The position numbers were made by a program, and so were the translations under genes. This document shows, piece by piece, positions 1-23,558 of a DNA stretch of 64,000 nucleotides (position 1 is its first letter; every line of letters begins with the position of its first letter). The notes under the pieces were generated by a model that did no database searches, was not told the DNA's origin, and saw only the letters and a list, made by a program, of their open reading frames with translations. Origin of the DNA: Escherichia virus TH47; the sequence record MT446416.1; one strand, 5' to 3'.

Positions 1-1
1 A

Positions 2-1051: not shown

Positions 1052-1054
1052 CAA

Positions 1055-1086
1055 AAAGGAGAGCAAATGCTCTCCTTTTCTTTTTT
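1055..1086. terminator. bidirectional rho-independent terminator
   Basis: Perfect 10-bp stem aaaggagagc/gctctccttt with 4-nt loop, A-run upstream and T-run downstream; sits between convergent genes. Confidence 0.7.
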
Positions 1087-3373: not shown

Positions 3374-3411
3374 GTATTCTCCTAAATGAGTAGTCACTCT
3401 AATTAATAAAC

Positions 3412-3439
3412 ATTATATCACATTCTTTGCGTTTGTCAA
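3412..3439 (-). promoter_or_regulatory. sigma70-type promoter TTGACA-N16-TGaTATAAT driving the ClpA-like gene
   Basis: Minus-strand reading TTGACAaacgcaaagaatgtgaTATAAT; consensus -35 and extended -10, about 32-nt leader to the ATG. Confidence 0.6.
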
Positions 3440-3444
3440 CAAGG

Positions 3445-3450
3445 TAAATA
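3445..3450 (+). promoter_or_regulatory. T4-late-like TAAATA motif 31 nt upstream of ATG 3482
   Basis: One of eight TAAATA sites found 31-36 nt upstream of gene starts in this window. Confidence 0.3.
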
Positions 3451-3481
3451 AAGATATACCCGATTTATTTTGGAGACAAAC

Positions 3482-4978
3482 ATGACATACAGAATGTGGA
3501 AAAAAGGTAGAACCAATGATTACAAGTTCATTGACTCTGCCATAGCAGAACAATACAACATCGGTGGTGTTGACATGTGGCTTTATGCCTATGTCGGACC
3601 AAAACAAGTCGCTGATAACACTGATTTATCATATGGCGGTGATTATTATGGTTCAGATAGTACCGTTGTGTCAAGCATTGGTGATTTAATTTTTGGTGAC
3701 ACTCCAAGTCGTAACTATAATCTCGAAGCTATCACCTTAAGTTGCGTCTACCAAGTCCAAGAAGCAACTCCTGACTTGAAAATCCCAGGATTGTTCTTCA
3801 ACTTTAACACTATGGACATCACAATTCATTATAACACAATGATTCAGCGTTTGGGAAGAAAAATTATGCCAGGTGACGTAATCGAACTCCCTAACTTACG
3901 TGATTTTGATGTACTTGGTAAAGATTCTGGTTTAAATCGCTTCTATGTAGTACAAGATGGGTTTAGAACATCAGAAGGTTACTCAGTTACATGGCAACAT
4001 CACATTTACAAACTCCGTGTTAAACCTCTTACTGATTCACCAGAGTATTCAGACCTTCTAGGTAACAATAACTACCCTGATGACCCAGATGAACCAAACA
4101 ACGGCAATGGTAATACTGATGATGGCTCTTCAGAGAACAGCAGCTATGGTAATGAAATGGACATTATGAACCGTATCATTATGCAAGCTGATGATGAAGT
4201 ACCATACATTCATTTTACTAACGAACACTTGTTCGATGACAGACCAGATACCGTTGATTTGTCTAAGTATATGCTAAATGGATACGAATTACCAGAGGAA
4301 CCAGCAAATAAAATGTATTTCCTCAAGAAAACTTACCCAGTACTGAAAGAACTATCTAATGATACATGGATTTCTGTAGAAGTCAAGCGTGGAACAATCT
4401 TTCCTCGCAAACCGATGGATGGTGACTTCTTCTTTAAAGAAAACGAGGCTGATGTCACTGGCTTCTCATTGTATCAATACGATAAATCTGCCAAAAAGTG
4501 GCTAAATTGTGATGTTGAGTATACTACAGAAAGCACACCACCACAAGGGGTTGATGATTTTTATATTGAATACAAAGAACCACACATTTATCAGTACTTA
4601 AATGGTAAATGGGGAGAACCAGAAGTAACTTACGTTAATGACCCATTCACTTCTAATAGTGTTTATGGAAATATCGATTCACAACAAGATTATCGTCCTA
4701 AGATTCCTCCAGCACGAGGTACAGTTCCTGAAGGTAATATGTTCCCAAGTGATGCAGTTGATGGTGATTACTACTATCGTACCGATTATACACCAGTAAC
4801 CCTATGGGAATACAGTGCATCCAAGAATTCTTGGGTGATTTTCGATTACGGTGGTAGAAAACCGTGGGAAGGTGCAGATCTTGCTCTAACAGAATTTGTT
4901 AATAGCCCGAACCGTGTACCATTACATGATGCAGTTAAACCTAATACAGCGTATCGTATACATAAGGATTCAGAATGA
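3482..4978 (+). CDS. hypothetical protein (possible virion structural)
   Basis: 498-aa ORF; ATG 3482 with GGAG SD; ORF-track start 3470 is TTG; stop overlaps next ATG (ATGA). Confidence 0.5.
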   Translation: MTYRMWKKGRTNDYKFIDSAIAEQYNIGGVDMWLYAYVGPKQVADNTDLSYGGDYYGSDSTVVSSIGDLIFGDTPSRNYNLEAITLSCVYQVQEATPDLKIPGLFFNFNTMDITIHYNTMIQRLGRKIMPGDVIELPNLRDFDVLGKDSGLNRFYVVQDGFRTSEGYSVTWQHHIYKLRVKPLTDSPEYSDLLGNNNYPDDPDEPNNGNGNTDDGSSENSSYGNEMDIMNRIIMQADDEVPYIHFTNEHLFDDRPDTVDLSKYMLNGYELPEEPANKMYFLKKTYPVLKELSNDTWISVEVKRGTIFPRKPMDGDFFFKENEADVTGFSLYQYDKSAKKWLNCDVEYTTESTPPQGVDDFYIEYKEPHIYQYLNGKWGEPEVTYVNDPFTSNSVYGNIDSQQDYRPKIPPARGTVPEGNMFPSDAVDGDYYYRTDYTPVTLWEYSASKNSWVIFDYGGRKPWEGADLALTEFVNSPNRVPLHDAVKPNTAYRIHKDSE

Positions 4979-8559: not shown

Positions 8560-9057
8560 TTAGTAGTTAATTAAAATTTGTTCTAACTTACCAGCTAAAC
8601 TTTTTTGTACATCAGATGGATACTTGCTAATGTAATCACGGTCAATACCAACTTTCAGATAGGTAAAGTTTCCGGTTAAGGTTTCAGCGAATGTACCAGT
8701 TGTACCTTGTTCTCTAATAAGGTCACCACCATTTGGGTTAAGAATGACATTATCAGTAAATTCAAGATAGAAGTTGCAGCTTTCGGTAAATTTAATTGGG
8801 AACCAATCATCGTCCGATGGATTACTTGCCAGTGTAGCGAGTACGTAAATTCTACCAATGAAGTTACGTAGGGTAAAGGATATTGTATGTAATCCTGTAG
8901 TACTACCATAATAGCCGCCACTAGCTAATGATAATGTTTGTTCGTTCCAATGATAATCTAAGTTAGCAGGATACCAGCTATCTGATTCAGGAAATTCTTG
9001 CCATGAACCATCTTTAGTTTTTCTTTTGAAGAGGAAGTCTTTTGATCTTAATGCCAT
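8560..9057 (-). CDS. hypothetical protein
   Basis: 165-aa ORF; first gene of minus-strand operon. Confidence 0.45.
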   Translation of the reverse strand: MALRSKDFLFKRKTKDGSWQEFPESDSWYPANLDYHWNEQTLSLASGGYYGSTTGLHTISFTLRNFIGRIYVLATLASNPSDDDWFPIKFTESCNFYLEFTDNVILNPNGGDLIREQGTTGTFAETLTGNFTYLKVGIDRDYISKYPSDVQKSLAGKLEQILINY

Positions 9058-9088
9058 TGTTAAGCCCTTTTAGTAGTGAACTTTCATT

Positions 9089-9094
9089 TATTTA
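9089..9094 (-). promoter_or_regulatory. T4-late-like TAAATA motif 31 nt upstream of ATG 9057
   Basis: Recurrent motif and spacing. Confidence 0.3.
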
Positions 9095-9124
9095 TTAATG
9101 GCAACGAAATGTATTTTGTACTGA

Positions 9125-9130
9125 TAAATA
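9125..9130 (+). promoter_or_regulatory. T4-late-like TAAATA motif 36 nt upstream of ATG 9167
   Basis: Recurrent motif and spacing; divergent partner of the 9089 site. Confidence 0.3.
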
Positions 9131-9166
9131 TTGGTATATGACATTAACTCATACAAGGGAAATATT

Positions 9167-10294
9167 ATGACAATTTCATTCAACAATGGGTCAGGTGGTT
9201 CATGTAATAATTCTGGCATCAAAAGTTTAGTTATTAACGCTGCTGGACATTTAATTGTAACCTATTCCGACAATACAATCCAAGACCTAGGTCTAGTGGT
9301 TGGACAAAATGGTGCTAACGGTAGAAACTTTTATCCAAATGAGATAGGTTTTGAAGTTCCTAATGAACTCTTCCGTGTTGGTGAAGAACTAGGGTGGTGT
9401 TATCTTAGTCTTGCAAATGGCACTAGTACTTTATATTTTAAATCAAACGATGCACAAGAAGAAATTAGTACTTGGAACCGTGTAGAGTTTGGTAAAGGTG
9501 ATACTGGCGAAACTGGTAAACCATTCCACATTGACAGTTCTGGTACGGTGTTTCCAACAACTGGTCTTTTCAATAATTACACATTCTATAATACTGAAGA
9601 TGGTAAATTATATTTCTATCAAAGCGTAACTGCAACATGGAGTGATGGTATTCCTTTCCGTGGTGAACAAGGTCTACGTGGTCGTTTCCATATTGATAGT
9701 ACTGGTAGTCAATTCCCAAGTATTGATAATCTACCACAAGATTATTGCTTCTATAACACTACTGATGGTAATTTGTATTATGTTGATATCGTAACTACAT
9801 CATCAACCCCAACTAAAGAGTGGAGTGCTGGAATCTTATTCCGTGGTAAAGACGGTGAAGAAGGTAAGCAAGGTGAGCAAGGTGTTCAGGGTGAACCTGG
9901 TAAAGACACAGTTGTTATCATCAACACTATTGATCATTCATGGACTAACGCATTGTTAGTTATTGGTACATGCCCTGCTGGATACCTAGTAACTAATATC
10001 GAAGTTGACATTAATCAAGCATATGATGAACCAGTAAATGAAATGTTTGTACGTTTCGGTGGTGAAGCACAAGAAGATATTGGTGGTACTGTAATTGCAC
10101 CTGTTGATTATTTCGATATCAACCGCAAAATGCGTTACATTGTTAACGAAACCAACCACGAAGTATCAAGTAAAGATGAAATCATTTCTTGTGTATTCAA
10201 TGATTCCGTAAACAACAGTTCATTTGGTGAAATGAAGATCGTTTGTACTTTATCATGGCAAGCACCTATTCAGCCTATTCAAGATAACATTTAA
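9167..10294 (+). CDS. tail-fibre-like protein with collagen-like G-X-Y tract
   Basis: Seven consecutive G-X-Y triplets (GKDGEEGKQGEQGVQGEPGKD); duplicated ~30-aa segment FHIDSxG...FYNTxDGxLY; ATG 9167 preferred over TTG 9131. Confidence 0.55.
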   Translation: MTISFNNGSGGSCNNSGIKSLVINAAGHLIVTYSDNTIQDLGLVVGQNGANGRNFYPNEIGFEVPNELFRVGEELGWCYLSLANGTSTLYFKSNDAQEEISTWNRVEFGKGDTGETGKPFHIDSSGTVFPTTGLFNNYTFYNTEDGKLYFYQSVTATWSDGIPFRGEQGLRGRFHIDSTGSQFPSIDNLPQDYCFYNTTDGNLYYVDIVTTSSTPTKEWSAGILFRGKDGEEGKQGEQGVQGEPGKDTVVIINTIDHSWTNALLVIGTCPAGYLVTNIEVDINQAYDEPVNEMFVRFGGEAQEDIGGTVIAPVDYFDINRKMRYIVNETNHEVSSKDEIISCVFNDSVNNSSFGEMKIVCTLSWQAPIQPIQDNI

Positions 10295-10308
10295 AAGAGG
10301 GTTGATAC

Positions 10309-10344
10309 ATGGCAGTTTTTTCCAATTTAGAAGGGACCATGATG
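10309..10344 (+). repeat. conserved N-terminal module, copy 1, shared by adjacent fibre genes
   Basis: atggcagttttttccaatttagaagggaccatg versus copy at 12465; encodes MAVFSNLEGTM. Confidence 0.7.
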
Positions 10345-12450
10345 CCAACATTCAAGTTGGGTAAACGTGGTGCTTCTATTAATTTTGTAAACGATTCTGT
10401 CGCAATCAAAGACTTTTTAGGTGAAACGTTCCTACCTGTTAAGGTGGGAACTCCTAATGACGATGATTCCGCAGTAAACGTTATGTATCTTGAAGATAAC
10501 CCAAATGCTTTATTTGGCGTACTTCCACCAACAAATGACATTGGTAAAAATAACAACACTTATTTTCAAGTTGATTCTGAGGGTATTGTTGATATCTTTG
10601 CAAAAACAAATGATGTTTGGGTAAAATCATTATACATTAATAAAAATGTCCTTTCCAGTGTTAACGGTGCTGATTATATCGGACTTATTACTGGAGGAAC
10701 ACTCCAACAGGCACAGTTTTACATAACTCCAGAAGAGTTTGGTGCAAAAGGTGATGGCATCACTGATGACACGGCAGCGGTTAACGCATGTGCAGTTTAT
10801 GCAAAAGAACACCAAATCCAAATTCAAGCTGGTGGTAATTATCGTATCAGAACTGCTGTTTATTTGAATGATATTCAATGGTTTGGTGGAACAATCACTG
10901 GCAACGGTGGCACAATGGTATCAGTACTGAATAGTACAATCCAACAAGCAACATTAACAGGATGTTATTTAAAATTCTTTGGTGGTGATGGTAAATTTTA
11001 TTTTAATAAATTTATTAATATTACAAGTACTGCTACATTTCTAATGCAAGGTATGACTGAATCAGGTACTATCGACTTTTGCTTTAATGAAATGACACAA
11101 TGTAAGTACGGTGTTCTTCAGCAAGGCACTGGTGAGAAAATGACAGTTGGGCGTTATTCATACAACCACATCCATGATATATATGGTGATGCAATTGAAT
11201 TGAACGTAGTCAACTCACATTACCCAGACGGTTTTGTAATAGAAGGTAACTTGATTGAAAACGTAGATGGTACAGATGCACCAATTCCTCTTTCAAACTG
11301 GGGTATTGGTATCGGCGTTGCTGGTTCTGGTCCTTATGATGTGAATGCTGATGATTCACAATATGTAAAAAAATTCGTTATAAAAAATAACCGCTTGTAC
11401 AATGTCCGTCAATGTATTCACGTTGAGTTGGGTAAAGACTTTAAAATTCTCAATAATGAAGTTTATCCATCAACGTTGGTATCAATTGGTACTGGTTTGA
11501 CAACCGCTGGTGTAATTACTTATGGTTCTGTTGATTTTATTATTGATGGCCTATCTGGGCATCTATTAAATGATCCATCAGTAACTAACCGTATGGTTTC
11601 TATTAACTGGGGTGTAACATCTGGTAAATTTGCTGGTCCTCCACGTAACTTTAAATTATGTAATCTCCACATTCCTGAGTCGTCTATTATTGTGTATACT
11701 TCAGGCTCTGATAATTGGCTAAATACTACTGAACTTTCTAATATTACATGTAGTAGAATTCAATGGCGTGGATTGCCGTCATCTTCCAAGTTTAATAATA
11801 TCAGTACTAAAGAACTTGATGTTATTGGACAACACCTTGCAACTGAAGGTGAAGGAGGGGGCTTATATACTCGCTCTAAATATACATATACCAACTGGAC
11901 TAATTGTGTTGTTCAAGATGATTGTAACATATCAAAATATAGTTTCTCAAGAATGTATGTTGACCGTATTGACCAATCATCTAATAACTTTAAAGTAACC
12001 ACTGCAATTGATGGAACTGGACATCGTGGACCTGTAGTAATACCTGTAGTTGAACAGTATTACGTGCCTTATGATGTTTTTCCTGGTGGGAGATATTTCC
12101 CAGAAGGAACAATTATCCATAAACAATCAGGTGGAAAATTTATTGTTACAGTAGGTGGTTCTTTCTTTGGTCGATATGACACAATTAGACAAACAGTTGC
12201 AGGACAAACTTATATCGAAGCATTGGGTGTATCATGGGGTGATAATCAATATGCTAAAGCTGCTGGAACCGAAATCCTAATCACAGGAGCAGGGGAAAAC
12301 GGCGAAGATTTAAAAACATATATCACTAGAGCAGTTTATGTTGTTAATAATGCGTATCGTATCGATATTGCCGATCCGATTGTTACTGCTACCGCAGCAG
12401 GGGCATTATTGAAAGCTGCTCAACCAATAACATATATCACCCTATCTTAA
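10309..12450 (+). CDS. tailspike with pectate-lyase-like beta-helix (putative depolymerase)
   Basis: EFGAKGDGITDDTAAVNA motif typical of pectate-lyase-fold tailspikes; N-terminal 11 aa identical to next gene. Confidence 0.65.
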   Translation: MAVFSNLEGTMMPTFKLGKRGASINFVNDSVAIKDFLGETFLPVKVGTPNDDDSAVNVMYLEDNPNALFGVLPPTNDIGKNNNTYFQVDSEGIVDIFAKTNDVWVKSLYINKNVLSSVNGADYIGLITGGTLQQAQFYITPEEFGAKGDGITDDTAAVNACAVYAKEHQIQIQAGGNYRIRTAVYLNDIQWFGGTITGNGGTMVSVLNSTIQQATLTGCYLKFFGGDGKFYFNKFINITSTATFLMQGMTESGTIDFCFNEMTQCKYGVLQQGTGEKMTVGRYSYNHIHDIYGDAIELNVVNSHYPDGFVIEGNLIENVDGTDAPIPLSNWGIGIGVAGSGPYDVNADDSQYVKKFVIKNNRLYNVRQCIHVELGKDFKILNNEVYPSTLVSIGTGLTTAGVITYGSVDFIIDGLSGHLLNDPSVTNRMVSINWGVTSGKFAGPPRNFKLCNLHIPESSIIVYTSGSDNWLNTTELSNITCSRIQWRGLPSSSKFNNISTKELDVIGQHLATEGEGGGLYTRSKYTYTNWTNCVVQDDCNISKYSFSRMYVDRIDQSSNNFKVTTAIDGTGHRGPVVIPVVEQYYVPYDVFPGGRYFPEGTIIHKQSGGKFIVTVGGSFFGRYDTIRQTVAGQTYIEALGVSWGDNQYAKAAGTEILITGAGENGEDLKTYITRAVYVVNNAYRIDIADPIVTATAAGALLKAAQPITYITLS

Positions 12451-12464
12451 AGGAGATTATAAAA

Positions 12465-12500
12465 ATGGCAGTTTTTTCTAATTTAGAAGGAACCATGAAG
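12465..12500 (+). repeat. conserved N-terminal module, copy 2
   Basis: Near-identical to 10309-10344. Confidence 0.7.
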
Positions 12501-13364
12501 AAGACCTTCATACTTGGTAAAAATGGTGCACAAATTGCCACTAATGGTAATGTTGTTCAAATCCAGAACTACACGGGTACACAACTTCTTCCTGTTTCAG
12601 CAGGTGACCCAACCGCAAATACACACTTGGTTACATTGGGTTATTTGAATACACATAGCGGTGGTGGTGGCGGTTCCGGTATTTTACGTGGAACTATTGC
12701 ACCATCTGAATCAATTGGTGTAGATGGTGACGCTTACTTCTTAGTTGACAGTACTAATATTATTCAGATCTATATTAAAGACCTTGGTGTTTGGAAACCT
12801 CTCCAAAGCACAACTCCAGGTACTGATAGTTCTTACGTTACTACTGAAATCGTTCCTGTATCGGCATTTACATTAGTTCCTGGAACAACAGATCAATATA
12901 CTTATTCTTTACCTGAATCAGTACATGGTCGTGGTCCAGATATTATGGTTCAGCTACAGGGTGACCCTGGTAACATCCCACTTGACACTGTATTCCAAAC
13001 TAACGTCACTGTGAGTGGTATTGGTGACATTACGATTGATGTTATTGGTCAAATCACTGATTATACAAGTGTCAAAGTCAACATCATAGGAGCAACAACA
13101 ATGACAGTACCTTATAGTAAATTAATTAACCAAGCGGATTGGGTAGTATCTAGTGATGAATACACCATTACTATCCCAGCGTCTGAACATAACCAAACAC
13201 CTGATAATTTGTATATTTCAATTTATTCAAATAAAACTCCAGGTAGCACAGCAGCATCACCATTTGAACTGGTAATAACCGAAACTCAAATTGATGCAAG
13301 TGGTAATGTTACATTCACTTCTGACGAAGCGTTTAGTGGTAAAATAGTAATTTCTGGTAAATAA
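12465..13364 (+). CDS. tail fibre protein sharing N-terminal anchor with the tailspike
   Basis: MAVFSNLEGTM N-terminus; poly-Gly linker HSGGGGGSG; AAAGGAG SD. Confidence 0.55.
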   Translation: MAVFSNLEGTMKKTFILGKNGAQIATNGNVVQIQNYTGTQLLPVSAGDPTANTHLVTLGYLNTHSGGGGGSGILRGTIAPSESIGVDGDAYFLVDSTNIIQIYIKDLGVWKPLQSTTPGTDSSYVTTEIVPVSAFTLVPGTTDQYTYSLPESVHGRGPDIMVQLQGDPGNIPLDTVFQTNVTVSGIGDITIDVIGQITDYTSVKVNIIGATTMTVPYSKLINQADWVVSSDEYTITIPASEHNQTPDNLYISIYSNKTPGSTAASPFELVITETQIDASGNVTFTSDEAFSGKIVISGK

Positions 13365-13373
13365 AAAAAATAG

Positions 13374-13406
13374 TCCAGACTACGATTCATCGAGTCTGGA
13401 TTTTTT
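13374..13406 (+). terminator. rho-independent terminator
   Basis: tccagact/agtctgga stem followed by T6. Confidence 0.65.
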
Positions 13407-13482
13407 ATATCAATAACTAAATATATGTATATTAACAAGGTCAAATGTATTTTATGCTTTTTGCCTATTTGGAGGGAACTAA

Positions 13483-16400
13483 ATGTACTCGATTAAAACA
13501 GATCTCGATATAACTGGTGGTGCAACGGTTGGTAAAGATCTTCTTGTGAAAGGCGATGCAGTATTCAATAAAAATCTAACAGTTAATGGAACCGTAACTT
13601 TTGCTGACGCTGTATTCACTGCGATTGAAGCAGGAACTGTAGACATTTCATCTACACTAGATGTTGCTGGTAAAGCATCATTGAATGGTGGGATTGAAGT
13701 TCATGGTAATTCCGTAATTGGTAATTTACCAGTTGGCTCTGATACTGCAACGATTAATTCTAATGCACAATTCCAAAGCCCAGTATCAATGGCAGGTAAC
13801 CTAACACAAACGGCTGGCACTGCTGTACTAAAAGATACCCAAGTGGCATCAATGGATGTTCTTGGAACTTCTTCATTTAAAGGTAATATTACTGCTGAAA
13901 CTGGCACTACCGCAGCATTTGACAAAATAACTGCAACTGATGCAACATTCACAAACACTGCAACTACTGATATCACATCAACTGGAACTGCAAACTTTAA
14001 AGATGTGAATATTTCCGGTACACTAGGTGGAACATTTAGTCTATCTGATGTTAATGCAACAACTCTAACTGTTTCTGGTTTAACCAGTCTACAAGGTGGT
14101 GTTACATTAGGTTCCAACATTACTGGTGTGAATAGTAGTGCAAACTTCCGTGATATTAAAATTGGTTCCAATGCTGCAAACACTAACTACCGTTTGAGCT
14201 TTAACTATTCTGCTCCAAGTCTTCGTCCAACTGTAATTCTACAGAACGAAATCCAATCAGAATTGATGTCTCCAGCTACCCTAAGTGTATTGAAAACTGC
14301 ATCTTTTGGTGATTCGTCATTATCCACTTTTGGTATTACTGGTAATGGTCTAAACAAACTAGATTACCTAACAGTATCTGGTAACTCTGTTCAAGATCCA
14401 ACAACTCCACTATTACAAGTAACTTCAGGTAAAACTAAAGTTCATGATTTCGAAGTAACAGGAACTGCAACTATTCCTAACATTGAAAGTACTGGAACTG
14501 CTAATTTTAATAACATCAACGTATCTGGTACACTCGGCGGTACTTTCAGTCTTGATGATATTGAAGCAAACACTCTAACTGTTTCTGGATTAACTAGCCT
14601 TGTTGGTGGTGTAACTTTGGGTGCTGATATTTCCGGTGCTAATAGTACTGCTAATTTTAAAGCAGTAAGTTTAGGACAAAACGCAGCCGATGCTAACGTT
14701 AAGTATGGTTTTGCTTATTCTGCCCCTGGTGCACGTCCAACTGTAATTCTACAAAATGAAATTCAGTCTGAACTAGTATCTCCAGCAGTACTAAATGTAC
14801 AAAAAACTGCTACCTTCGGTGATGCATCTCTTGCAACCTATGGTATCACAGGTAACGGTCTAAACAAACTAGATTATCTATCTATTACTGGTAATGGTAC
14901 ACAAAGTCCAGCAACGCCACAACTACAAGTAGCTGGTAAATCAGTACTAAATGATGTTGAATTCACTGGTACTGTAACTGGCCTAACAGTTGATGTAAGT
15001 GGTCAAGACCTAACTCCTAAATCTGTTGTTGCTGCTGAAGCAATCAAAGGACAAACCCTTGAATCTGTTGGTCAAACCACCGTAGGAACTAACCTACAAG
15101 TTGGTGGAACAGCTAATGTTGTTGGTGCACTAACTGGTACTGCTGCAACCTTTACTGGTGACGTAAGTGCTGCTAAAGGTACTTTCAGTGGTGATGTTAG
15201 CGTTACTGGGCAAACTGTAACTGTACGTGATTTAGTAGTAACTGGCACAACTACTGGTGTAACTGCCCAAGCTGACGTTGATGGTCTTGATATCGCCCCA
15301 AATAAAGTTGATGTTACAACAACACTATCTGTTGCTGGGGACACTACTTTAGCTGGTCTAACTGCTAGTTCAGTAACAAGTACTGGTGATGTTACTGGTG
15401 CGTCTGTATCTGGTAATACAGTAACTGCGGCTGGTGCACTATCTGGTGGTTCTCTTGCAGTAACTGGTGCTGGTTCTATGGCTTCACTAACTGTTCCAAG
15501 TATTACTGGGGACACTACTTTTGCTAATAACGTAACTATTACTGGAACACTAACTCCGAGTAGTATAGATTTAAGCACTACTGATGTAAGTGCTGCTTCT
15601 TTAACAACTACTGGTAACGTAACTGTTGGTGGTTCTCTTGCAGTAACTGGTGCTATTGATTTGTCTGCTGCTGATGTAGTAACAAAATCAGTTAGTGCAA
15701 CTAACCCAAGTACATTTGGTGTAATTAATGCATCTTCTGTTGCCGCAACTGGTGACGTTTCAGGTGGCACTCTAACTACTACTGGTGCAGCGAAAGTAGG
15801 AACACTAACTAGTACTGGTGTAGTATCTGGTTCGCGTTTGTCTTCTGGTACTGCAACAATCTCAACTTCTGTAACAGTTCCAACTTTACAAGCTGAAGCT
15901 GCTGGTGCTGGTACACTAAATCTAGCAAGTAATGTTGTCGCGGCAAAAGATCTAACTGTCACTGGTGTATTCAAACCTGAAGGTGGTCTTGACCTAACAA
16001 CTGTTGATATTACTGCAAACTCACTAACTACTACTGCTGATGTTAATGTTGGTGGAAACTTAGTAGTTGATGGTACTTTTGACCTAAGTGCTGCTGATGT
16101 ATCAGTTAAATCTCTTGTAAGTGCAGAGGCAATTACTAGTGGTGGTGTGATTACCGTTACCGATTCAACCAATACTAGTTCGTTCCCTAAAATTACTTCA
16201 ACTGATGCAACACTCTTTACAGTAAATGCAGGTACTATTAATGCAACTGGCAACAGTGTACTACAAAGTGTATCAGCTACTCAAGTAACTGCTACTAGTG
16301 CTGAATTTTCTGGTAGTGGCCTTGGTCTTCAAGTTGATAATGATGCAAACGTTGGTGGTGCATTATCTGTTGGTGGCATTGCAACTGTTGGTTCTTTAAC

Positions 16401-18441
16401 AACAACTGCTGCTTCTCTTAATATTGCAAAAAATACTGCAATCAATGGTGATTTAGCTGTATCTGGTACACTAACTGCTGGTTCAATCGACCTAAGCAAT
16501 ACTGATGTAACCGTTAAATCTCTTGATTCACTAGGTAACGCACACATTGCTGGTAACCTAACTGTTGATGGTGCATTCGACTTAAGTGCAACTAACCTTG
16601 TAGCTGCAAGTCTAGCAAGTACTGGTTCTACTACTGTTGGAACTGATCTAGTACTAACAACTGGTGTTGTGACTGGTAGCCCAGCTATCTCTGGTAATAC
16701 AACAATCGGTGGAACTCTTGGTGTAACTGGTGCTGTTAACCTAACTGATATTGTTAATATCGGTAAGAAAGTAACAGTGAGTACTGGTGGTATTCAGGTA
16801 GTTGATGGTGGTATCAATACTAACACAATTAACGTTTCTGGTGCTACTACTCTAGCAGGAACTTCCATTACTGGAACTTTAGGTGTAACTGGTGCTTCTA
16901 CTCTAGCAGGTGTATCTGCAACATCACTAACAGTTTCTGGTGACAGTACTGTTCAGAAACTAACTGTCCAAGGTGAATTGATCCCACAAGGTGGTCTTGA
17001 CCTAAGCGGTGCAGACATTACTGCTAATAGTCTAACTACTGCAACAACTATCAATGCAACTGGCCTAAGTACTCTAAGTGGTGGTGTTAGTACTTCTACT
17101 GTGACTGCATCTGGTCTAGCAACTGTTGGAAGTTTAACTTCTACTGCAAACGCATCAGTTGGTGGTAATTTGGGTGTAACTGGAACTCTAGGTGTTACTG
17201 GTGCAACTACTGTATCTTCACTAACAGCTACTGGTGCAGTGAAAACTGGTACAACCCTAACTGTTGGTACTCCAGTTGGTGAACAACCTGAAACTGTACA
17301 GATCATTCCAGATACTTATATTGCTGGTAAATTGCGTGTAATCGGCGGTATTAACGCTGATATTGATGTTAGTGGTCAAACACTAGAACCATATGCAATT
17401 GAAGCTGCTGCAACACTATCTGCTGTTGGTAACATTACTTCTGGTGCAACCATCGTTTCTAAAGCTGCAACAATTGGTGATGTTGGTTCACAAAACAACA
17501 ACCTAACTGTTAATGGTAACGTAGTAACTAATGGTGACTTCACAGTTACTGGGGTACTAAATGCACAATTGAACCAAGCAGATTCCGATGTAGCTGTTAA
17601 ATCTTTAACTGCAACTAATAACGTTGCGGCTGGTACTTCAATCACTGCTGGTACTTCCATCACTGCAACTGGATTACTTAAAGGTAATACTTTAGAAGTT
17701 ACTACTACTGGTTCATTTGGTGGTGCAGTAACTATGTCAAGTGGTGCAAACATCACTGGTACAGTGGGTATTACTGCTGGTGACCTAACAGTAGGTGGTA
17801 ATATCTCTGCAACTGGCACTGCTGGATTCGGTGCAACAACCGTTTCTACAATTACAACATCAGGTTTGGCTACACTTGCAAGTACATCCGTTACTGGTAA
17901 CGCAACAGTAGGTGGAACACTAGCAGTAACAGGAGCACTAACTGCGAATGGTAACGTAACATTAGGTGACGCAGCGGCTGACGTTCTAACCGTTAATGCA
18001 ACTTCATCATTTAAAGAAAATGCTGTGTTTGATAAGGCAGTAACAGTAACTGGTGAACTAACCACTACTAATGCTAACTTAACTACTACAACAGTAACTA
18101 CCAAAAAGTATGATGTAATCCCAACTCAAGTTACATCATCAGTAATTGCTCCAACCGGAACATGGACTCCAGATGGTACAAGTAACGTGTACTTCATCAC
18201 TCTAGACCAAGATACCACGTTGGCTCCAATTACTGGCCTAATTGGTGGCGGTAAAGCTGCATCAGTATACATCTATGTTAAACAAGATACAACTGGTAAC
18301 AGAAACTTTACAACTGATGGTACTTATGCTGTTGTTGATGGTGAACTAAACAAAACTGCTGGTAGCGTGACCATTTACCAAGTAATTTATGATGGTGTAA
18401 GTCCAGTTACTGATTTGTTCATTGCACAACGTACTGCTTAA
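13483..18441 (+). CDS. giant repetitive fibrous protein (1652 aa)
   Basis: T/G/V/S/A-rich periodic sequence; GGAGGG SD; tandem 170-aa duplication near N-terminus. Confidence 0.6.
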   Translation: MYSIKTDLDITGGATVGKDLLVKGDAVFNKNLTVNGTVTFADAVFTAIEAGTVDISSTLDVAGKASLNGGIEVHGNSVIGNLPVGSDTATINSNAQFQSPVSMAGNLTQTAGTAVLKDTQVASMDVLGTSSFKGNITAETGTTAAFDKITATDATFTNTATTDITSTGTANFKDVNISGTLGGTFSLSDVNATTLTVSGLTSLQGGVTLGSNITGVNSSANFRDIKIGSNAANTNYRLSFNYSAPSLRPTVILQNEIQSELMSPATLSVLKTASFGDSSLSTFGITGNGLNKLDYLTVSGNSVQDPTTPLLQVTSGKTKVHDFEVTGTATIPNIESTGTANFNNINVSGTLGGTFSLDDIEANTLTVSGLTSLVGGVTLGADISGANSTANFKAVSLGQNAADANVKYGFAYSAPGARPTVILQNEIQSELVSPAVLNVQKTATFGDASLATYGITGNGLNKLDYLSITGNGTQSPATPQLQVAGKSVLNDVEFTGTVTGLTVDVSGQDLTPKSVVAAEAIKGQTLESVGQTTVGTNLQVGGTANVVGALTGTAATFTGDVSAAKGTFSGDVSVTGQTVTVRDLVVTGTTTGVTAQADVDGLDIAPNKVDVTTTLSVAGDTTLAGLTASSVTSTGDVTGASVSGNTVTAAGALSGGSLAVTGAGSMASLTVPSITGDTTFANNVTITGTLTPSSIDLSTTDVSAASLTTTGNVTVGGSLAVTGAIDLSAADVVTKSVSATNPSTFGVINASSVAATGDVSGGTLTTTGAAKVGTLTSTGVVSGSRLSSGTATISTSVTVPTLQAEAAGAGTLNLASNVVAAKDLTVTGVFKPEGGLDLTTVDITANSLTTTADVNVGGNLVVDGTFDLSAADVSVKSLVSAEAITSGGVITVTDSTNTSSFPKITSTDATLFTVNAGTINATGNSVLQSVSATQVTATSAEFSGSGLGLQVDNDANVGGALSVGGIATVGSLTTTAASLNIAKNTAINGDLAVSGTLTAGSIDLSNTDVTVKSLDSLGNAHIAGNLTVDGAFDLSATNLVAASLASTGSTTVGTDLVLTTGVVTGSPAISGNTTIGGTLGVTGAVNLTDIVNIGKKVTVSTGGIQVVDGGINTNTINVSGATTLAGTSITGTLGVTGASTLAGVSATSLTVSGDSTVQKLTVQGELIPQGGLDLSGADITANSLTTATTINATGLSTLSGGVSTSTVTASGLATVGSLTSTANASVGGNLGVTGTLGVTGATTVSSLTATGAVKTGTTLTVGTPVGEQPETVQIIPDTYIAGKLRVIGGINADIDVSGQTLEPYAIEAAATLSAVGNITSGATIVSKAATIGDVGSQNNNLTVNGNVVTNGDFTVTGVLNAQLNQADSDVAVKSLTATNNVAAGTSITAGTSITATGLLKGNTLEVTTTGSFGGAVTMSSGANITGTVGITAGDLTVGGNISATGTAGFGATTVSTITTSGLATLASTSVTGNATVGGTLAVTGALTANGNVTLGDAAADVLTVNATSSFKENAVFDKAVTVTGELTTTNANLTTTTVTTKKYDVIPTQVTSSVIAPTGTWTPDGTSNVYFITLDQDTTLAPITGLIGGGKAASVYIYVKQDTTGNRNFTTDGTYAVVDGELNKTAGSVTIYQVIYDGVSPVTDLFIAQRTA
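13978..14997 (+). repeat. tandem duplication (2 x about 510 bp) inside the giant fibre gene
   Basis: Protein segments 166-335 and 336-500 align over their full length (STGTANF...TVILQNEIQSEL...GITGNGLNKLDYL). Confidence 0.7.
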
Positions 18442-18507
18442 TAATTATAATAAAAAAAACGGTGTCATCAATTATGGTGACACCATCTTAACAAGTGAGG
18501 TAGTTAT

Positions 18508-19287
18508 ATGTTTACATATGTAAAAGGTAGTTCTAAAGAAAATTATGAATTGGGTAACATCATCTCCAACCCAGTTGGTGTTAAGGGTTTAAAAGAACGC
18601 CCTGGGGCAACTCCAGATGATGAACAAACATATCGTTATTTGTACAGTGATATTCGTGCACTTTATGGTATTTCAAGTAAAGATGGTTCTGAAATTGAAC
18701 CTAATAACGCTGTTCGCAAAGAAGAGGGTTTCTGGTGGTTGGAATATAAGAATGTTGGTAATGTGAACGCAATTAATGAGAATTTGGAATATATTAAACT
18801 ACAAGATAGTAATCAACCAGTCATCACATTCTTAGAAGAAGCAGAAGGTGAATATAAAGAGTTAACAGTACTGAAAACTTATAATTATGTTGATATGGAC
18901 ATTGCAGCAGTTAAATCTGATCTGAAAGCACGCACAGTATCATCTCGTAGTGATCGTATTAATGCTGGTTATATGTTTAACGGTCATCGTTATAGTACTG
19001 ATCTAGCTGGTCGTCAAATGCTTCTTAATTATTATACACAAGTAACTTCCGGTTCTGATAGCGTTTCGATTTTCCTTGATGACGCAATTGTAAAACTATC
19101 TGCTGCTGAAATGACTCAACTATACACTGAAGCATTTGCTATGGTTGAATCCCTATTTGCAGAGTGTAATAAGCAATGTGCTGACATTGATGCAGTTCCT
19201 GATGCTGATGAAGATGCAATTTATAAAGCACAACAGGCGGCTGTATGGGTATATGAAGGTATTGATATTCCTGAGCGTACTCGTTAA
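18508..19287 (+). CDS. hypothetical protein (possible fibre assembly or accessory)
   Basis: 259-aa ORF with GTGAGG SD; function is a positional guess. Confidence 0.4.
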   Translation: MFTYVKGSSKENYELGNIISNPVGVKGLKERPGATPDDEQTYRYLYSDIRALYGISSKDGSEIEPNNAVRKEEGFWWLEYKNVGNVNAINENLEYIKLQDSNQPVITFLEEAEGEYKELTVLKTYNYVDMDIAAVKSDLKARTVSSRSDRINAGYMFNGHRYSTDLAGRQMLLNYYTQVTSGSDSVSIFLDDAIVKLSAAEMTQLYTEAFAMVESLFAECNKQCADIDAVPDADEDAIYKAQQAAVWVYEGIDIPERTR

Positions 19288-19302
19288 TTTATATTTTTTT
19301 TA

Positions 19303-19335
19303 AAGGTCAACTATGGTTGGCCTTTTCTTTTATCT
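19303..19335 (+). terminator. rho-independent terminator
   Basis: 8-bp stem aggtcaac/gttggcct (one G-U pair) followed by ttttctttt. Confidence 0.6.
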
Positions 19336-19339
19336 AAAA

Positions 19340-19345
19340 TAAATA
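19340..19345 (+). promoter_or_regulatory. T4-late-like TAAATA motif 34 nt upstream of ATG 19380
   Basis: Recurrent motif and spacing. Confidence 0.3.
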
Positions 19346-19379
19346 CTTAATATATAATCTATTCTGAGGAAATATTTAA

Positions 19380-21344
19380 ATGAGTATAAATCGAATTAGA
19401 GGTGATGGTGGTGTAATTATAGATAGTCAGGCATTTCTAGAATTACCTAAAGCACCGACTAAAGAAACCGCTGATGTGGTTAGATCAGGGATGATTAGAT
19501 ACAATAAAGGATGGAAAGCATTTGAAGGTGTACTAGACTTTGAAGATGGTTCAATGGCATATCGACGTTTTGCAAACCTAGATGCGAACGGTAAACTTCT
19601 TACTTCCCAATTACCAGATTCAGTAACTAGTGGTTTACAATTTGTTGGTACATATAATCCCATCCCAGATGATATCGATCCACCTTTAGCACAAACTCCA
19701 CTACCAGCACCATCACCATCGCTTAATGGTGATTATTATGTCGTTCGTGGTATAATGGATGCCGCACAAGCACATTATGAAGCAAATAATCCACAAACAA
19801 GTCCTGTTACATTTACACCTACAAATCCAACTGGACAAGGTAATTGGATTGAAATTTTATATTATGTTGACTCTAATCCAAATATATCTGGTGCTAAACT
19901 AGTAACATACGCTTTTGCTAGAATTATTACTGCATCTATTCCCAGTACTGGACATGATGGCCTTGAAAATTTAGCAACAGATACTGACTTGACCAAACCA
20001 TTTGCATCTGGTGTTCCAATGAACCAAACTGCACTTTCAGATGGCGATTGGATTATTATAACTGAAGATAAGAATATACGTCTTCGTCAGTCAAGAACAA
20101 GCATTTCCGCTGCTTCAGTATTATATGACAATACTGTAATGATTGCAAATCATCGTCAATTTAGAACAAACGCAGGGACCGTTCAAACATCCATAGATAA
20201 CGTTGTGATTGAGTGTTTACGTAGAACTGGCGATTCCATGTATAATGATGGAACAGACGGCTCTGGGCGTTTTGGGGTGGTGTATGGCAGTGCAGCAGCA
20301 CCAGCATTGACATTTAATAATAATCCGTTTGACCCAACGAATAACCCAGGTAATGACCCAACTAAGTGGTCCGATGCTAATACTGGTATATTTCATCCAT
20401 CCGATGACGCAATTGGGTTCAGCACTGCTGGCACAGAACGTGTTCGAATTAATAATGGAACACTAACATTATTCCAAACTACCGCTACACCAGCAGCTAC
20501 GCCAGTAATACGTTTTGATAATGCATCAAACACAAACGTAGGGATAAGTGCAAGTAGTAATATTATTTCTTTAAGTTCAATGAATAAAGTTCAAGTTGAA
20601 TTTAAAAATGGTGAATCACATTTTCATGGAAATATTATTGTAGATGGTTCAACATCACTAACTGGTGATTTAGACGCAGGTAACATCAATGCCAGCGGGA
20701 ATTTAGTTGTTAAAGGTAATACAACACTAGGTGACACTACTGGTGACACTATTACAGTTAATGGTGTTAGTACTTATAATGCAAATACTAATTTCAATGG
20801 AACTAATAACAAATTCAAAAACATAAACTTACTAGAGAATGGTGTATTCACATTAGAAAGTACTACAAACCAAAGTGATATAAAACTACTTGGTGCAGAC
20901 TTACGTTTCACTATGGGAAGTTATGCTGATGTAAGTATATATGATAACGGTGTTATTCGTACTCGTTTCAACCGATATGGTATTCAATTACCAGTACTGG
21001 CTACAATTGATAACTCGGTTGGTGTTGATGGTATGATTGCATACTCAAATACCGAACGTACATCGATGCAGAAGGTTCAAGGACAATGGGTTCCAATTGG
21101 TTCTGGTTCTGTTCGTACTGACCCGTTTGTTGCGTCAGCGTGGGTTTTAAACGGCTCATATTACACATTAACAGTAACTGCTAGTAACATAGTAACTGCT
21201 GAAATTCAAGAACTCGTAAGTACTGGTGTTTACACTCGTGTTGAAGTTGATAGTGTTACATTCAATGGAACAAGCGTAGTGTTCAGTATCCCTGCAACTC
21301 CTGATGTGAGATTTGCCGGACGTACACTGGTTACATTAAGATAA
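19380..21344 (+). CDS. tail-fibre-like protein
   Basis: 654-aa ORF; N-terminal GMIRYNKGWKAFEGV segment and Gly/Asn/Thr-rich body resemble fibre proteins. Confidence 0.5.
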   Translation: MSINRIRGDGGVIIDSQAFLELPKAPTKETADVVRSGMIRYNKGWKAFEGVLDFEDGSMAYRRFANLDANGKLLTSQLPDSVTSGLQFVGTYNPIPDDIDPPLAQTPLPAPSPSLNGDYYVVRGIMDAAQAHYEANNPQTSPVTFTPTNPTGQGNWIEILYYVDSNPNISGAKLVTYAFARIITASIPSTGHDGLENLATDTDLTKPFASGVPMNQTALSDGDWIIITEDKNIRLRQSRTSISAASVLYDNTVMIANHRQFRTNAGTVQTSIDNVVIECLRRTGDSMYNDGTDGSGRFGVVYGSAAAPALTFNNNPFDPTNNPGNDPTKWSDANTGIFHPSDDAIGFSTAGTERVRINNGTLTLFQTTATPAATPVIRFDNASNTNVGISASSNIISLSSMNKVQVEFKNGESHFHGNIIVDGSTSLTGDLDAGNINASGNLVVKGNTTLGDTTGDTITVNGVSTYNANTNFNGTNNKFKNINLLENGVFTLESTTNQSDIKLLGADLRFTMGSYADVSIYDNGVIRTRFNRYGIQLPVLATIDNSVGVDGMIAYSNTERTSMQKVQGQWVPIGSGSVRTDPFVASAWVLNGSYYTLTVTASNIVTAEIQELVSTGVYTRVEVDSVTFNGTSVVFSIPATPDVRFAGRTLVTLR

Positions 21345-21350
21345 TAAAAA

Positions 21351-21380
21351 AGGGAGACATAAGTCTCCCTTTTCTTTTAT
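21351..21380. terminator. bidirectional rho-independent terminator
   Basis: agggagac/gtctccct stem, A-run upstream, T-run downstream; between convergent genes. Confidence 0.7.
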
Positions 21381-22306
21381 ACAGCCATTGGTGCTTTGAT
21401 TGTTGGCATTGGATCGTAATTAACTAATTTGAAAGAATCCATAGTGAAATCTTCAATATCAGTAATAGTAGGATCTAACCATAATTCTGGTAATGTACGT
21501 GGTTCACGTTGGAGTTGCTCTTTTACTTGTTCAATATGGTTTTGATAGATATGGCAGTCGCCACCATTCCAAATAAATTCACCAACATCTAACCCAGTAA
21601 TTTGTGCAATCATATGAGTTAGTAGTGAGTAACTACTAATGTTAAATGGTACACCAAGGAATAAATCAGCACTGCGTTGATGAAGAATACAACTTAGTTT
21701 ACCCTGTACAACACAAAACTGCACAAAGCTATGACAGGGTGGCAAAGTCATAGCATCAAGCTCACCAACGTTCCATGCACTTAGAATGTGACGACGACCG
21801 TATGGATCAGTATTGATACCTTCAATAACTTGTTTTAGCTGGTCAGTTACACGACGCATAATAACACCATGTGAACCAGTATAATCAATAACTTTATACC
21901 CTTTATCTTTTAGTTCTTGAATTTCTTCAGTACTGGAACTGAATTTATAATCTTCCCATTCACGCCATTGTTTACCATAAACTGGGCCAAGCTCACCATC
22001 AGAATACCCAAGGCTTACACCTTGATTAAGGTAGTTGTCTGTCCAAATTGTTTTCTTTTCTACATCACGTGTCCCGTGTAAAATTTCACACAGACGACGC
22101 TCATCGTGAGAACCTTCAATAAACCATAACAATTCTGAAGTCATTGCTTTCCAAGCCAAACGTTTAGTAGTTACTGCTGGGAAACCTTCTTTTAGGTCAA
22201 AACGCATTTGTTGTCCGATTAGCTTGATAGTGCCAACACCAGTACGATCAACGCTTTCGACACCTTGATCCAGAATTCTTTGATATAGTTCTTGTAGTTG
22301 TTTCAT
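21377..22306 (-). CDS. thyA: thymidylate synthase
   Basis: DRTGVGT, LPPCHSFVQF (catalytic Cys), GKLSCILHQRSADLFLGVPFNI, C-terminal IKAPMAV; about 33-aa in-frame insertion relative to E. coli ThyA. Confidence 0.92.
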   Translation of the reverse strand: MKQLQELYQRILDQGVESVDRTGVGTIKLIGQQMRFDLKEGFPAVTTKRLAWKAMTSELLWFIEGSHDERRLCEILHGTRDVEKKTIWTDNYLNQGVSLGYSDGELGPVYGKQWREWEDYKFSSSTEEIQELKDKGYKVIDYTGSHGVIMRRVTDQLKQVIEGINTDPYGRRHILSAWNVGELDAMTLPPCHSFVQFCVVQGKLSCILHQRSADLFLGVPFNISSYSLLTHMIAQITGLDVGEFIWNGGDCHIYQNHIEQVKEQLQREPRTLPELWLDPTITDIEDFTMDSFKLVNYDPMPTIKAPMAV

Positions 22307-22899
22307 TTTACGTCCTTGAAAAATGTAATAAAGTGTTCCATGTGTTTTTGTGTAGCATTACGTGAACCAATCCCAGTCCAGTTACCGTGTGGTGCTGGTA
22401 TTGAGAATGTTTCAGTAAACTCTTTCAGTACTGTATCATAATAAAATACAGAGCGAGTGTTCATATCATAACAATATATTTCTGGATTATCAACTGAATC
22501 CATATACATCTGTACTGCCCATGCAGTTCCACCTGAAACTTGCGTAGGTGATGTAATATTTGCAATACAATATACTCTTTTAGTATTAAGTATCTGATAA
22601 CTATTTCTTGCAAGTAATTTATATACATACGAACCGGGCTTCGGAACTGTTCGGCGTAAAGAGTAACATGCAATGTTTAATTGTTTTAATATTGAACTAT
22701 CACAAAGGATATTGGATGGAATTTCTAATATAGTATTTTCATCTACGCTGCTTTGGTGACCCTTGAATGAAAAATTTATTACTTCAAATCCATTGTCTTT
22801 TGCATAGATAGAAAAAAGGCGGTCAGCACCTGCTGCCCCGCCACTGAAACATACATTAGATAAACCATTGATTGCTTCATCTAATTCTATTTTATTCAT
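22303..22899 (-). CDS. Rossmann-fold protein with DprA/LOG-like G-G-A-x-G-A-D signature, function unknown
   Basis: CFSGGAAGADRLF motif; ATGA overlap with thyA start. Confidence 0.4.
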   Translation of the reverse strand: MNKIELDEAINGLSNVCFSGGAAGADRLFSIYAKDNGFEVINFSFKGHQSSVDENTILEIPSNILCDSSILKQLNIACYSLRRTVPKPGSYVYKLLARNSYQILNTKRVYCIANITSPTQVSGGTAWAVQMYMDSVDNPEIYCYDMNTRSVFYYDTVLKEFTETFSIPAPHGNWTGIGSRNATQKHMEHFITFFKDVK

Positions 22900-22904
22900 T
22901 TATA

Positions 22905-23558
22905 TTATTTTGCTTTACGTTCTGCAAATGCCTGTTTAACTTTCTCAATTGCTTTGGTTTGTGAAATTCCTTCTGGGATTTCAATATAGAAAGTTTTGCT
23001 ATCAGGTGCTACAGGTGTTGCTTGAACTTGTGGACGTAGAGATGGTTCTAAGTTGTAAGCACGTTCAAAGTGCTCTTTAGCCAACTGCTCATAACGTTGT
23101 GCATCTTTAAGTAGTTGCTCAACAATGGTAGCTTCTTCAACAGAAGTATCAACTTCTTGTGGCTTGAATGGGTTGTATTCTTTAACTTTACCATCTTCAT
23201 GTTTTTTAGTATCATTATCATTGATTGCGTTGTTTAGAACATCAAGAGAAATCTTACTGTTTCCGCCAACATGCATATCAATATCACAAGTACGTGCACG
23301 ACGCAAATGTTGTAGATTATGAAGAACATCTAGCATTTTGCGACCGTCTAGATGACCAATCTTATGCATAACTTCCCACAAATCTACATTCGATTGACCT
23401 TGATTCATTACTAAATCTGCAACAGATTGAGCATATGCTTCAGGAAGTGAGTCGCGATAAACAATGAGACAATGTTCTGGATCATCAGGGAGTGAACGCC
23501 ATACCACAAATACTCGTGAACCCGTATTACGTACTACACCAACGTGACGAATAGCCAT
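22905..23558 (-). CDS. hypothetical protein
   Basis: 217-aa ORF with AAAGGAGAA SD. Confidence 0.5.
   Translation of the reverse strand: MAIRHVGVVRNTGSRVFVVWRSLPDDPEHCLIVYRDSLPEAYAQSVADLVMNQGQSNVDLWEVMHKIGHLDGRKMLDVLHNLQHLRRARTCDIDMHVGGNSKISLDVLNNAINDNDTKKHEDGKVKEYNPFKPQEVDTSVEEATIVEQLLKDAQRYEQLAKEHFERAYNLEPSLRPQVQATPVAPDSKTFYIEIPEGISQTKAIEKVKQAFAERKAK

Follow-up and report, generated by a model that had tools for sequence, protein, structure and literature searches.

Very long fibre proteins have been found in the virions of jumbo phages that infect Escherichia coli and in those of their relatives. The protein gp256 of phAPEC6 (1841 amino acids (aa), 180 kDa) was represented by 15 peptides in virion mass spectrometry (PMC7247149 Table 1), and CBB_226 was also detected in virions by mass spectrometry (PMC5259590). 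In the Pectobacterium phage phiTE the long tail fibre is joined to the baseplate; the model covers no more than residues 14-171 of this fibre, and the module and tip discussed below lie outside the experimental structure (PMC11972413). Host range is determined by tail fibres, and coliphages of this jumbo group are being put forward for therapy against avian pathogenic E. coli (APEC), O157 and uropathogenic E. coli (UPEC). Here we describe a homologous gene of Escherichia virus TH47, located at 13483..18441 (+) in a 64,000-nucleotide (nt) stretch of sequence record MT446416.1 (the window). The gene probably encodes a long virion tail fibre, the phage being a jumbo myovirus of Asteriusvirus type (121Q/PBECO4-like). 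The fibre is modular, and its allele is a recombinant, probably fused by deletion: the body of one fibre paralogue is followed, in frame, by the tip of another.

Identification of the fibre family

The open reading frame (ORF) begins with ATG, has no internal stop and encodes 1652 aa. Its product matches PHROG 4549 ('tail fiber') with an E of 1.9e-200, and orthologues are found in virions by mass spectrometry, which upholds the name of fibre given to it in a preliminary description of the window. The low complexity noted in that description is evident from the composition: threonine (T, 17.9%), glycine (G, 12.5%), alanine (A, 11.0%), valine (V, 10.8%) and serine (S, 9.9%) together account for 62% of the residues, and the protein contains one tryptophan, three histidines and no cysteine. 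Because biased composition saturates the word index, searches for homologous proteins returned just 6 and 9 matches, and scans of IMG/VR added only 121Q, GAP32, CBB and one uncultivated contig. Identity to the orthologues is 75-98% in nucleotides and 52-100% in amino acids. The locus is syntenic in WPEC5, fEgEco12, 121Q, JP4, CRJP21, UB and CBB, with the fibre between a gene for a 299-aa structural protein and a gene for a DUF4376 protein. The papers on fEgEco12 and JP4 mention neither the internal repeats of the fibre nor the paired paralogues described here.

Members of the 121Q/phAPEC6 group match the fibre gene at ~75%. In 121Q (gp571), phAPEC6 (gp256), UB (1959 aa), and JP4 and CRJP21 (both 2129 aa), the locus and the N-terminal domain are as in the window, the modules also begin at residue 166, the tip has 94-96% identity, the type of shaft is the same and the next gene encodes a DUF4376 protein. 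The bodies of these proteins are, in contrast, only ~52% identical in amino acids to that of the window fibre, and the proteins are 190-480 aa longer through additional shaft units, to which JP4 and CRJP21 add a third module. The fibres of the Mimasvirus group, comprising CBB_226 (1553 aa), its GAP32 orthologue and a protein of a 371-kb uncultivated contig, likewise carry two modules and are followed by a DUF4376 gene, but they are ~32% identical to the window fibre, their modules start from about residue 270 and a spacer of ~28 aa lies between the two.

Among PDB sequences, phiTE alone matched at E <= 10. Its long tail fibre (PDB 9CUY chain g) aligns with the module at E 1.9e-9 and with the C-terminus at E 1.8e-32, and it is the only homologue that has been placed in a virion structure. 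We infer a baseplate location for the window fibre, which is presumed to be trimeric. No Pfam or NCBIfam model matched the module or the shaft.

Fusion of two paralogous fibre genes

In all nine of the closest relatives (WPEC5, WPEC3, EC.P1, Ecwhy_1, fEgEco12, vB_Ec-M-J, BF17, Turkey3 and CMSTMSU) this locus has a tandem pair of paralogous fibre genes. The WPEC5 pair, after which the two types are named here, is CDS0403 (1644 aa) and CDS0404 (1906 aa); that of fEgEco12 is g317 and g316. The bodies of the 403 and 404 types are 60-80% identical in nucleotides, and their tips are 54% identical in amino acids. Each of the nine phages matches the first 4.25-4.44 kb of the window gene at 96-98%. Over nt 1-4161 of the window gene the 403 type is 97-100% identical, and over nt 4197-4959 the 404 type is 98-100% identical. 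The two-gene phages keep separate genes with different tips, encoding 1638-1644 aa and 1899-1988 aa, whereas the window has a single fused gene.

Two blocks of the window align collinearly with WPEC5, the first covering 9000-18278 up to the end of CDS0403 and the second covering 17233-23000 from the 3' part of CDS0404. Sites that distinguish the paralogues were scored against four two-gene reference phages. Before gene nt 4160 there are 159-172 sites of 403 type and 5-9 of 404 type, and after gene nt 4335 there are 194-234 sites of 404 type and 0-3 of 403 type. The last 403-type site falls at gene nt 4152-4161 and the first 404-type site at 4170-4197, which places the crossover at ~17644-17678 (17644..17678 (+), gene nt 4162-4196, aa ~1388-1399). 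The window gene is an in-frame fusion at the shaft-tip junction, with a body of 403 type and a tip of 404 type.

The window locus is 5846 nt shorter than that of WPEC5, and the locus spacing is 3.74 kb in the window compared with ~9.55-9.8 kb in the nine close relatives. The window is without the 403-type tip, which is divergent, and without the longer shaft of the 404 type; the tip that it has, beside the DUF4376 gene, is the conserved one. The window differs from the two-gene phages by 1.4-1.8%, and the bodies of the paralogues differ from each other by 20-40%. As the divergence of the paralogues far exceeds that of the window, the two-gene state must be much older than the window's lineage. 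A deletion of ~5.85 kb by homologous recombination is the parsimonious account of the event, and we infer its direction to have been from two genes to one.

The same junction has been used in the relatives. The 403-type gene occurs in two allelic forms, of 4917 nt (BF17 and Turkey3) and 4935 nt (WPEC5), and these turn 404-like at different points, gene nt ~4191 in BF17 and Turkey3 and ~4440 in WPEC5. The differing switch points mark the shaft-tip junction as a point of recurrent exchange, and this pattern of sites indicates earlier gene conversion between the paralogues there. In this genome, the recent event is the paralogue fusion at the 3' end and not the duplication of the module.

Two records of the nine are annotated differently. 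In vB_Ec-M-J the 403-type gene is given as two coding sequences (CDS) of 3150 and 1749 nt, and the 404-type product, at 1988 aa, has an additional 82 aa. The CMSTMSU record is marked UNVERIFIED, and each of its two fibre genes is split into many small 'FliK' CDS. The split annotations in both records look like frameshifts or sequencing errors.

The tandem 170-residue module

A 170-aa module is present in two tandem copies near the N-terminus of the fibre. In a nucleotide self-comparison, gene nt 499-1004 and 1009-1511 are 69% identical (E 1.6e-54), and the protein copies agree at 111 of 165 residues (67%; 83% positives; E 5e-80). A hidden Markov model (HMM) of the unit places copy 1 at aa 166-335 (13978..14487 (+)) and copy 2 at aa 336-505 (14488..14997 (+)), the latter homologous to residues ~207-351 of the phiTE fibre. 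The duplication of 2 x 510 bp put forward in the preliminary description is thus significant in self-alignment; its first copy was delimited correctly at 166-335, and its second, given as 336-500, stops five residues short of the end set by the HMM. The unit HMM detected no further copies elsewhere in the 64-kb window. The module is rare, with 15 cluster representatives at E <= 1e-3 among 1.84 billion proteins.

Across the window, the 404 type, 121Q, UB and JP4, the first copies form a clade separate from that of the second copies, so that the duplication predates the radiation of these phages. The coordinates 166-335 and 336-505 are the same in orthologues that are just 75% identical in nucleotides, and exactly two copies are present in all nine close relatives. 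On these comparisons the duplication is ancient and fixed in the window's lineage, and not a labile array. At 69% nucleotide identity, with a longest exact match of 20 nt, the two copies are poor substrates for recombination today. They are not the near-identical tandem units seen at hypervariable contingency-type loci, and Tandem Repeats Finder reported no array in the gene beyond three tiny ones. A recent and unstable duplication was considered and rejected, since the copies group by position across the genus and share no more than 20 nt of exact identity.

Across the family, module number is polymorphic, as expected among isolates at a contingency locus. One copy is present in phiTE and in the rV5-like Vequintavirinae fibres, two in most giant fibres, two with a 28-aa spacer in CBB, GAP32 and the uncultivated contig, and three in JP4, CRJP21 and the metagenomic protein P0016. 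The JP4 fibre (2129 aa) corresponds to the UB fibre (1959 aa) plus one module. The first ~320 nt of its middle copy are of copy-2 type and the last ~190 nt are of copy-1 type, and this arrangement, c1-[c2::c1]-c2, is the product expected when misaligned copies undergo unequal crossing-over. In CBB the two copies resemble one another (70%) more than either resembles an Asteriusvirus copy, a pattern that points to independent duplication or gene conversion.

The earlier proposal that the gene expands and contracts by recombination therefore applies to the relatives, with their one, two or three copies and the JP4 hybrid, and not to the window's own copies, which are old and stable. The length variation that it predicted between isolates is real, with orthologues spanning 1553-2129 aa. 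Most of it has two sources, the super-repeats of the shaft and exchange between entire paralogous genes, neither of which the preliminary description had seen.

Shaft and termini

The modules are followed by a Thr/Gly/Ala/Val/Ser-rich shaft (aa 506-1532, 14998..18078 (+)). Residues 506-1480 show a quasi-periodicity of ~6 residues (z = 5.8 relative to 200 shuffles; harmonics at 11-12), and the shaft contains diverged super-repeats of ~100-120 aa that score 40-72 bits compared with <=25 bits in shuffled controls. Two strong units were located, at aa 981-1096 (16423..16770 (+), 76.7 bits) and aa 1151-1253 (16933..17241 (+), 69.5 bits). A node motif, '[ILV]D[ILV]S..D[ILV]', recurs at aa 503, 695, 725, 836, 1002 and 1172. 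The word 'periodic', used of this protein in the preliminary description, is loosely true, in that there is a quasi-period and there are diverged super-repeats, but Tandem Repeats Finder reports no true array.

In a six-way alignment, one block of the shaft accounts for most of the length difference that is left: the window fibre and the 403 type lack 253 aa that are found in the 404 type, UB and JP4. The block is located at the strong unit 16933..17241 and consists of two tandem super-repeats of ~120 aa, related to other shaft segments. The 121Q fibre lacks 119 aa of it, and the UB and 121Q fibres are one unit of ~119 aa apart. Strong super-repeat copies number ~2-4 across the family. The shaft would form a beta-structured rod of ~1000 aa, the length of which may be set by the number of super-repeats. 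Just before the tip (~17930-18000, aa ~1483-1507) there is a motif, 'LTANGNVTLGDAAADvLTVN.T', which is common to the 250-320-aa metagenomic proteins P0010-P0015. Several of these start in a signal-peptide-like manner, and this pre-tip element of the shaft may occur outside phage fibres.

The N-terminal domain (aa 1-165, 13483..13977 (+)) is beta-helix-like and gave a sub-threshold match to Bactofilin (E 2.5e-4, 21.7 bits against a cutoff of 27.9 bits). The modules start at residue ~160-180 in most giant fibres, at 113 in the 404-type paralogue and near 270 in the CBB group. The N-terminal ~165 aa, a length conserved in most of the family, would be the attachment end of the fibre.

At the other end, the C-terminal tip domain (aa ~1533-1652, 18079..18438 (+)) is predicted to be all-beta. 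It is 100% identical in amino acids to the 404-type tip, 94-96% to those of 121Q, UB and JP4, and 54% to the 403-type tip. The AlphaFold2 (AF2) model of the C-terminal 192 aa has a predicted local distance difference test (pLDDT) score of 64.5, which is moderate, with values of 68-90 over aa ~1550-1638. Foldseek found nothing in the PDB for this predicted domain (best E 0.33). The predicted tip resembles the C-termini of many phage fibres, at a root-mean-square deviation of 2.6-4 A, the matches all being predicted viral structures, and it matches the phiTE fibre (K9L5R6) with an E of 7e-8. This beta-domain of ~120 aa would form the distal tip. The C-terminal homologues P0007-P0009 carry a precomputed PF26209 assignment on which the local Pfam scan was silent for the identical window sequence; PF26209 is probably a recent Pfam entry.

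Directly 3' of the fibre gene, 18508..19287 (+) encodes a 259-aa protein with a C-terminal DUF4376 domain (PF14301, E 2.8e-9, 37.8 bits against a cutoff of 25 bits). DUF4376 proteins were shown by experiment to be fibre chaperones or caps in the Alteromonas phages V22 and A5 (PMC7289586, PMC10579305), and the CBB orthologue, CBB_225, is an abundant virion protein with 68.5% coverage by mass spectrometry (PMC5259590). To judge from gene order, the tip is probably folded or capped by this downstream protein, its presumed cognate chaperone or cap.

Expression signals and neighbouring genes

A Shine-Dalgarno sequence, GGAGG, lies at 13471..13475 (+), 7 nt 5' of the fibre ATG. Further upstream, 3' of the preceding 299-aa ORF, there is a terminator-like hairpin at 13374..13406 (+) with an 8-bp stem (TCCAGACT/AGTCTGGA) and an 11-nt loop, followed by TTTTTT. 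It was read directly off the sequence, as its loop exceeds the size allowed in the hairpin scan. A scan for sigma-70 promoters gave 10 sites compared with 17.7 expected and was uninformative. Three long antisense ORFs lie inside the fibre gene, at 15072-16253 (-) (393 aa), 17376-18104 (-) (242 aa) and 13701-14183 (-) (160 aa). They are most likely by-products of ACN/GGN/GTN-rich codon usage and not genes.

Upstream of the fibre, 10309-12450 encodes a 713-aa colanidase-like tailspike (phrog_6117, with a weak pectate-lyase-like Pfam match) and 12465-13364 encodes the 299-aa virion structural protein. These two proteins have a common N-terminal ~110 aa, with 41% identity and identical first 11 residues (MAVFSNLEGTM), a similarity that suggests a common docking domain with two different distal parts. 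The colanidase-like gene is annotated at 606 nt in JP4, compared with 2142 nt elsewhere. Downstream, the DUF4376 gene is followed by a gene for a 654-aa structural protein (19380-21344, phrog_14293). Its residues 412-465 form a weak bactofilin-like beta-helix, compositionally like the N-terminus of the giant fibre. In CRJP21 and UB an extra structural gene of 1368 nt lies between the DUF4376 gene and the 654-aa gene; it is not found in the window, 121Q or WPEC5.

Discussion

The fibre family probably evolves by unequal homologous recombination at three nested levels. The first is the 170-aa module, present in one, two or three copies. The second is the shaft super-repeat, with ~2-4 strong copies, and the third the whole gene, which occurs singly or as two tandem paralogues. 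On this scheme the window gene is a product of the third level, and its two modules would be proximal nodes of the fibre.

Several observations weigh against our reading of the gene as a long tail fibre, modular and fused by deletion. Residues 1-165 gave no significant alignment with the N-terminus of the phiTE fibre (domain 5 score -3.7), and the N-terminus of the window fibre thus differs from the phiTE baseplate anchor. The AF2 prediction for aa 150-520, which includes both modules, was made from a 7-sequence alignment and had a pLDDT of 42.6; it was unusable and leaves the module without structural support. The fusion junction falls where the paralogues are 93-98% identical. The fusion was seen in none of 50,697 phage records and the exact protein is absent from a collection of 15 billion proteins, so that the window is its single witness. 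Finally, the window nests inside the two-gene phages in 68% of bootstraps. The only outgroup is 27% divergent, and the low figure is attributable to this distance. With nesting at this level, it is mainly the divergence of the paralogues that speaks for the direction of the event.

The difference from the phiTE anchor bears on where the fibre is attached. phAPEC6, CBB and fEgEco12 are 'hairy', and the window protein could be a whisker fibre of the tail sheath or capsid instead of the long tail fibre of the baseplate. The proteins of the hairs are unidentified in phAPEC6 and CBB, and the baseplate fibres of phAPEC6 and fEgEco12 are described as short. The T4 long tail fibre measures ~145 nm for ~2500 aa per chain; by rough scaling, a fibre of 1550-1650 aa would be ~90 nm long, in the range of the CBB hairs (119 nm). 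GAP32, however, has an orthologue with two modules, yet there is no report of GAP32 being hairy. The fibre gene is also located in the cluster of baseplate and tailspike genes, and the phiTE fibre, the one homologue whose place in a virion is known from structure, sits at the baseplate. We therefore regard a hair protein as a doubtful alternative to a baseplate fibre.

The high identity of the paralogues at the junction and the single occurrence of the fusion are also what would be expected if the fused gene were an assembly artefact, the real phage having two fibre genes between which the assembler jumped, dropping 5.85 kb. The longest exact identity between the paralogues at that point is, however, 59 nt (WPEC5), a length that ordinary reads and the larger assembler k-mers both exceed. 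Assemblers usually break or form a bubble at such repeats and do not skip 5.8 kb of unique sequence. Moreover, the 403 alleles of the relatives turn 404-like at nt ~4191 and ~4440, and real exchange at the junction thus occurs in nature. Assembly collapse is unlikely on this evidence. The preliminary description had named misassembly as the finding that would undo the repeat; the duplication is unaffected by it, and it is the 3' fusion junction that is exposed to the collapse reading.

The modest bootstrap value leaves room for the opposite direction of change, in which the single gene is ancestral and the nine relatives gained a foreign segment made up of the divergent tip, the intergenic region and the 404 body. 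In 121Q, UB, JP4 and CBB a single gene is followed by the DUF4376 gene, as this would require, and the nesting of the window within the two-gene group is not robust. Such an insertion, however, needs a double crossover in frame, and a donor in which the junction of the two genes already existed. The 403-type body of the window also lacks the 253-aa block that is common to the single-gene phages and the 404 type. By virtue of this block it is the 404 gene, and not the window body, that resembles the single-gene orthologues in architecture, and one deletion is more parsimonious. We consider an ancestral single gene quite improbable.

It is scarcely credible that the protein is no fibre at all but an adhesin like YadA, the hook-length protein FliK of flagella or an enzyme that degrades colanic acid, labels that sit on orthologues in PBECO4, CMSTMSU and WPEC5. 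Searches of Pfam and NCBIfam gave no YadA, FliK or pectate-lyase domain, not even for sub-fragments at E <= 1, and it is the 713-aa ORF next to the fibre gene that has the colanidase-like domain. Biased composition, or transfer from a neighbour, seems to have given rise to the labels.

The reading as a deletion-fused long tail fibre yields a map of the domains in a large fibre family that is without annotation and whose module and shaft have no Pfam or NCBIfam model, and the map corrects the labels FliK, YadA, colanic-acid-degrading protein and T4 gp34-like on its orthologues. On the same reading, repeats mediate changes in length at three nested levels, with a clear footprint of unequal crossing-over, and the window comes from a natural isolate whose two fibres have become one at a point of recurrent exchange. 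The fusion may affect host range, and the shaft-tip junction is an obvious site for the engineering of tip swaps. More speculatively, the paired fibre genes and the shaft-tip junction could be a natural cassette-exchange system that reassorts shafts and tips and switches between two fibres and one, the window phage being a one-fibre derivative with altered host range, and the giant fibre could at the same time be the hair protein, with the number of modules and shaft units setting hair length. We think it improbable that this whole scheme is correct.

Comparison with known systems

The phiTE fibre (793 aa; PDB 9CUY/9MJN chain g; UniProt K9L5R6) also has the module, in one copy at ~207-351, and it shares with the window fibre the C-terminal domain and node motifs of the form 'VDVSGxDI.P.SV'. 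It has a single module and half the length of the window fibre, and its N-terminal helical 'rip-cord' anchor, a bundle that joins the sheath initiator and baseplate, is without counterpart in the window fibre, the N-terminus of which is beta-helix-like. In the Alteromonas phages the order of genes is the same as in the window, with a fibre immediately followed by a DUF4376 protein (gp26/gp27 in V22 and gp8/gp9 in A5), but those fibres are short (369-462 aa) and have no detected sequence similarity to the window fibre.

The T4 long tail fibre proteins gp34 and gp37 are likewise long, beta-structured and internally repeated, and they are the source of the label 'long tail fiber proximal subunit'; they have no detectable sequence relationship to the window fibre. 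A T4 gp34-like proximal subunit was rejected as a label for the window protein, as it had no support from Pfam, NCBIfam or PDB sequences, where phiTE was the sole match. In the T-even phages, recombination of fibre genes at shaft-tip junctions is classical. The window gene belongs to a known but poorly characterised fibre family, and its recombination at repeats and at the shaft-tip junction is of this classical kind; it overturns nothing on fibre evolution and is a well-resolved example of it.

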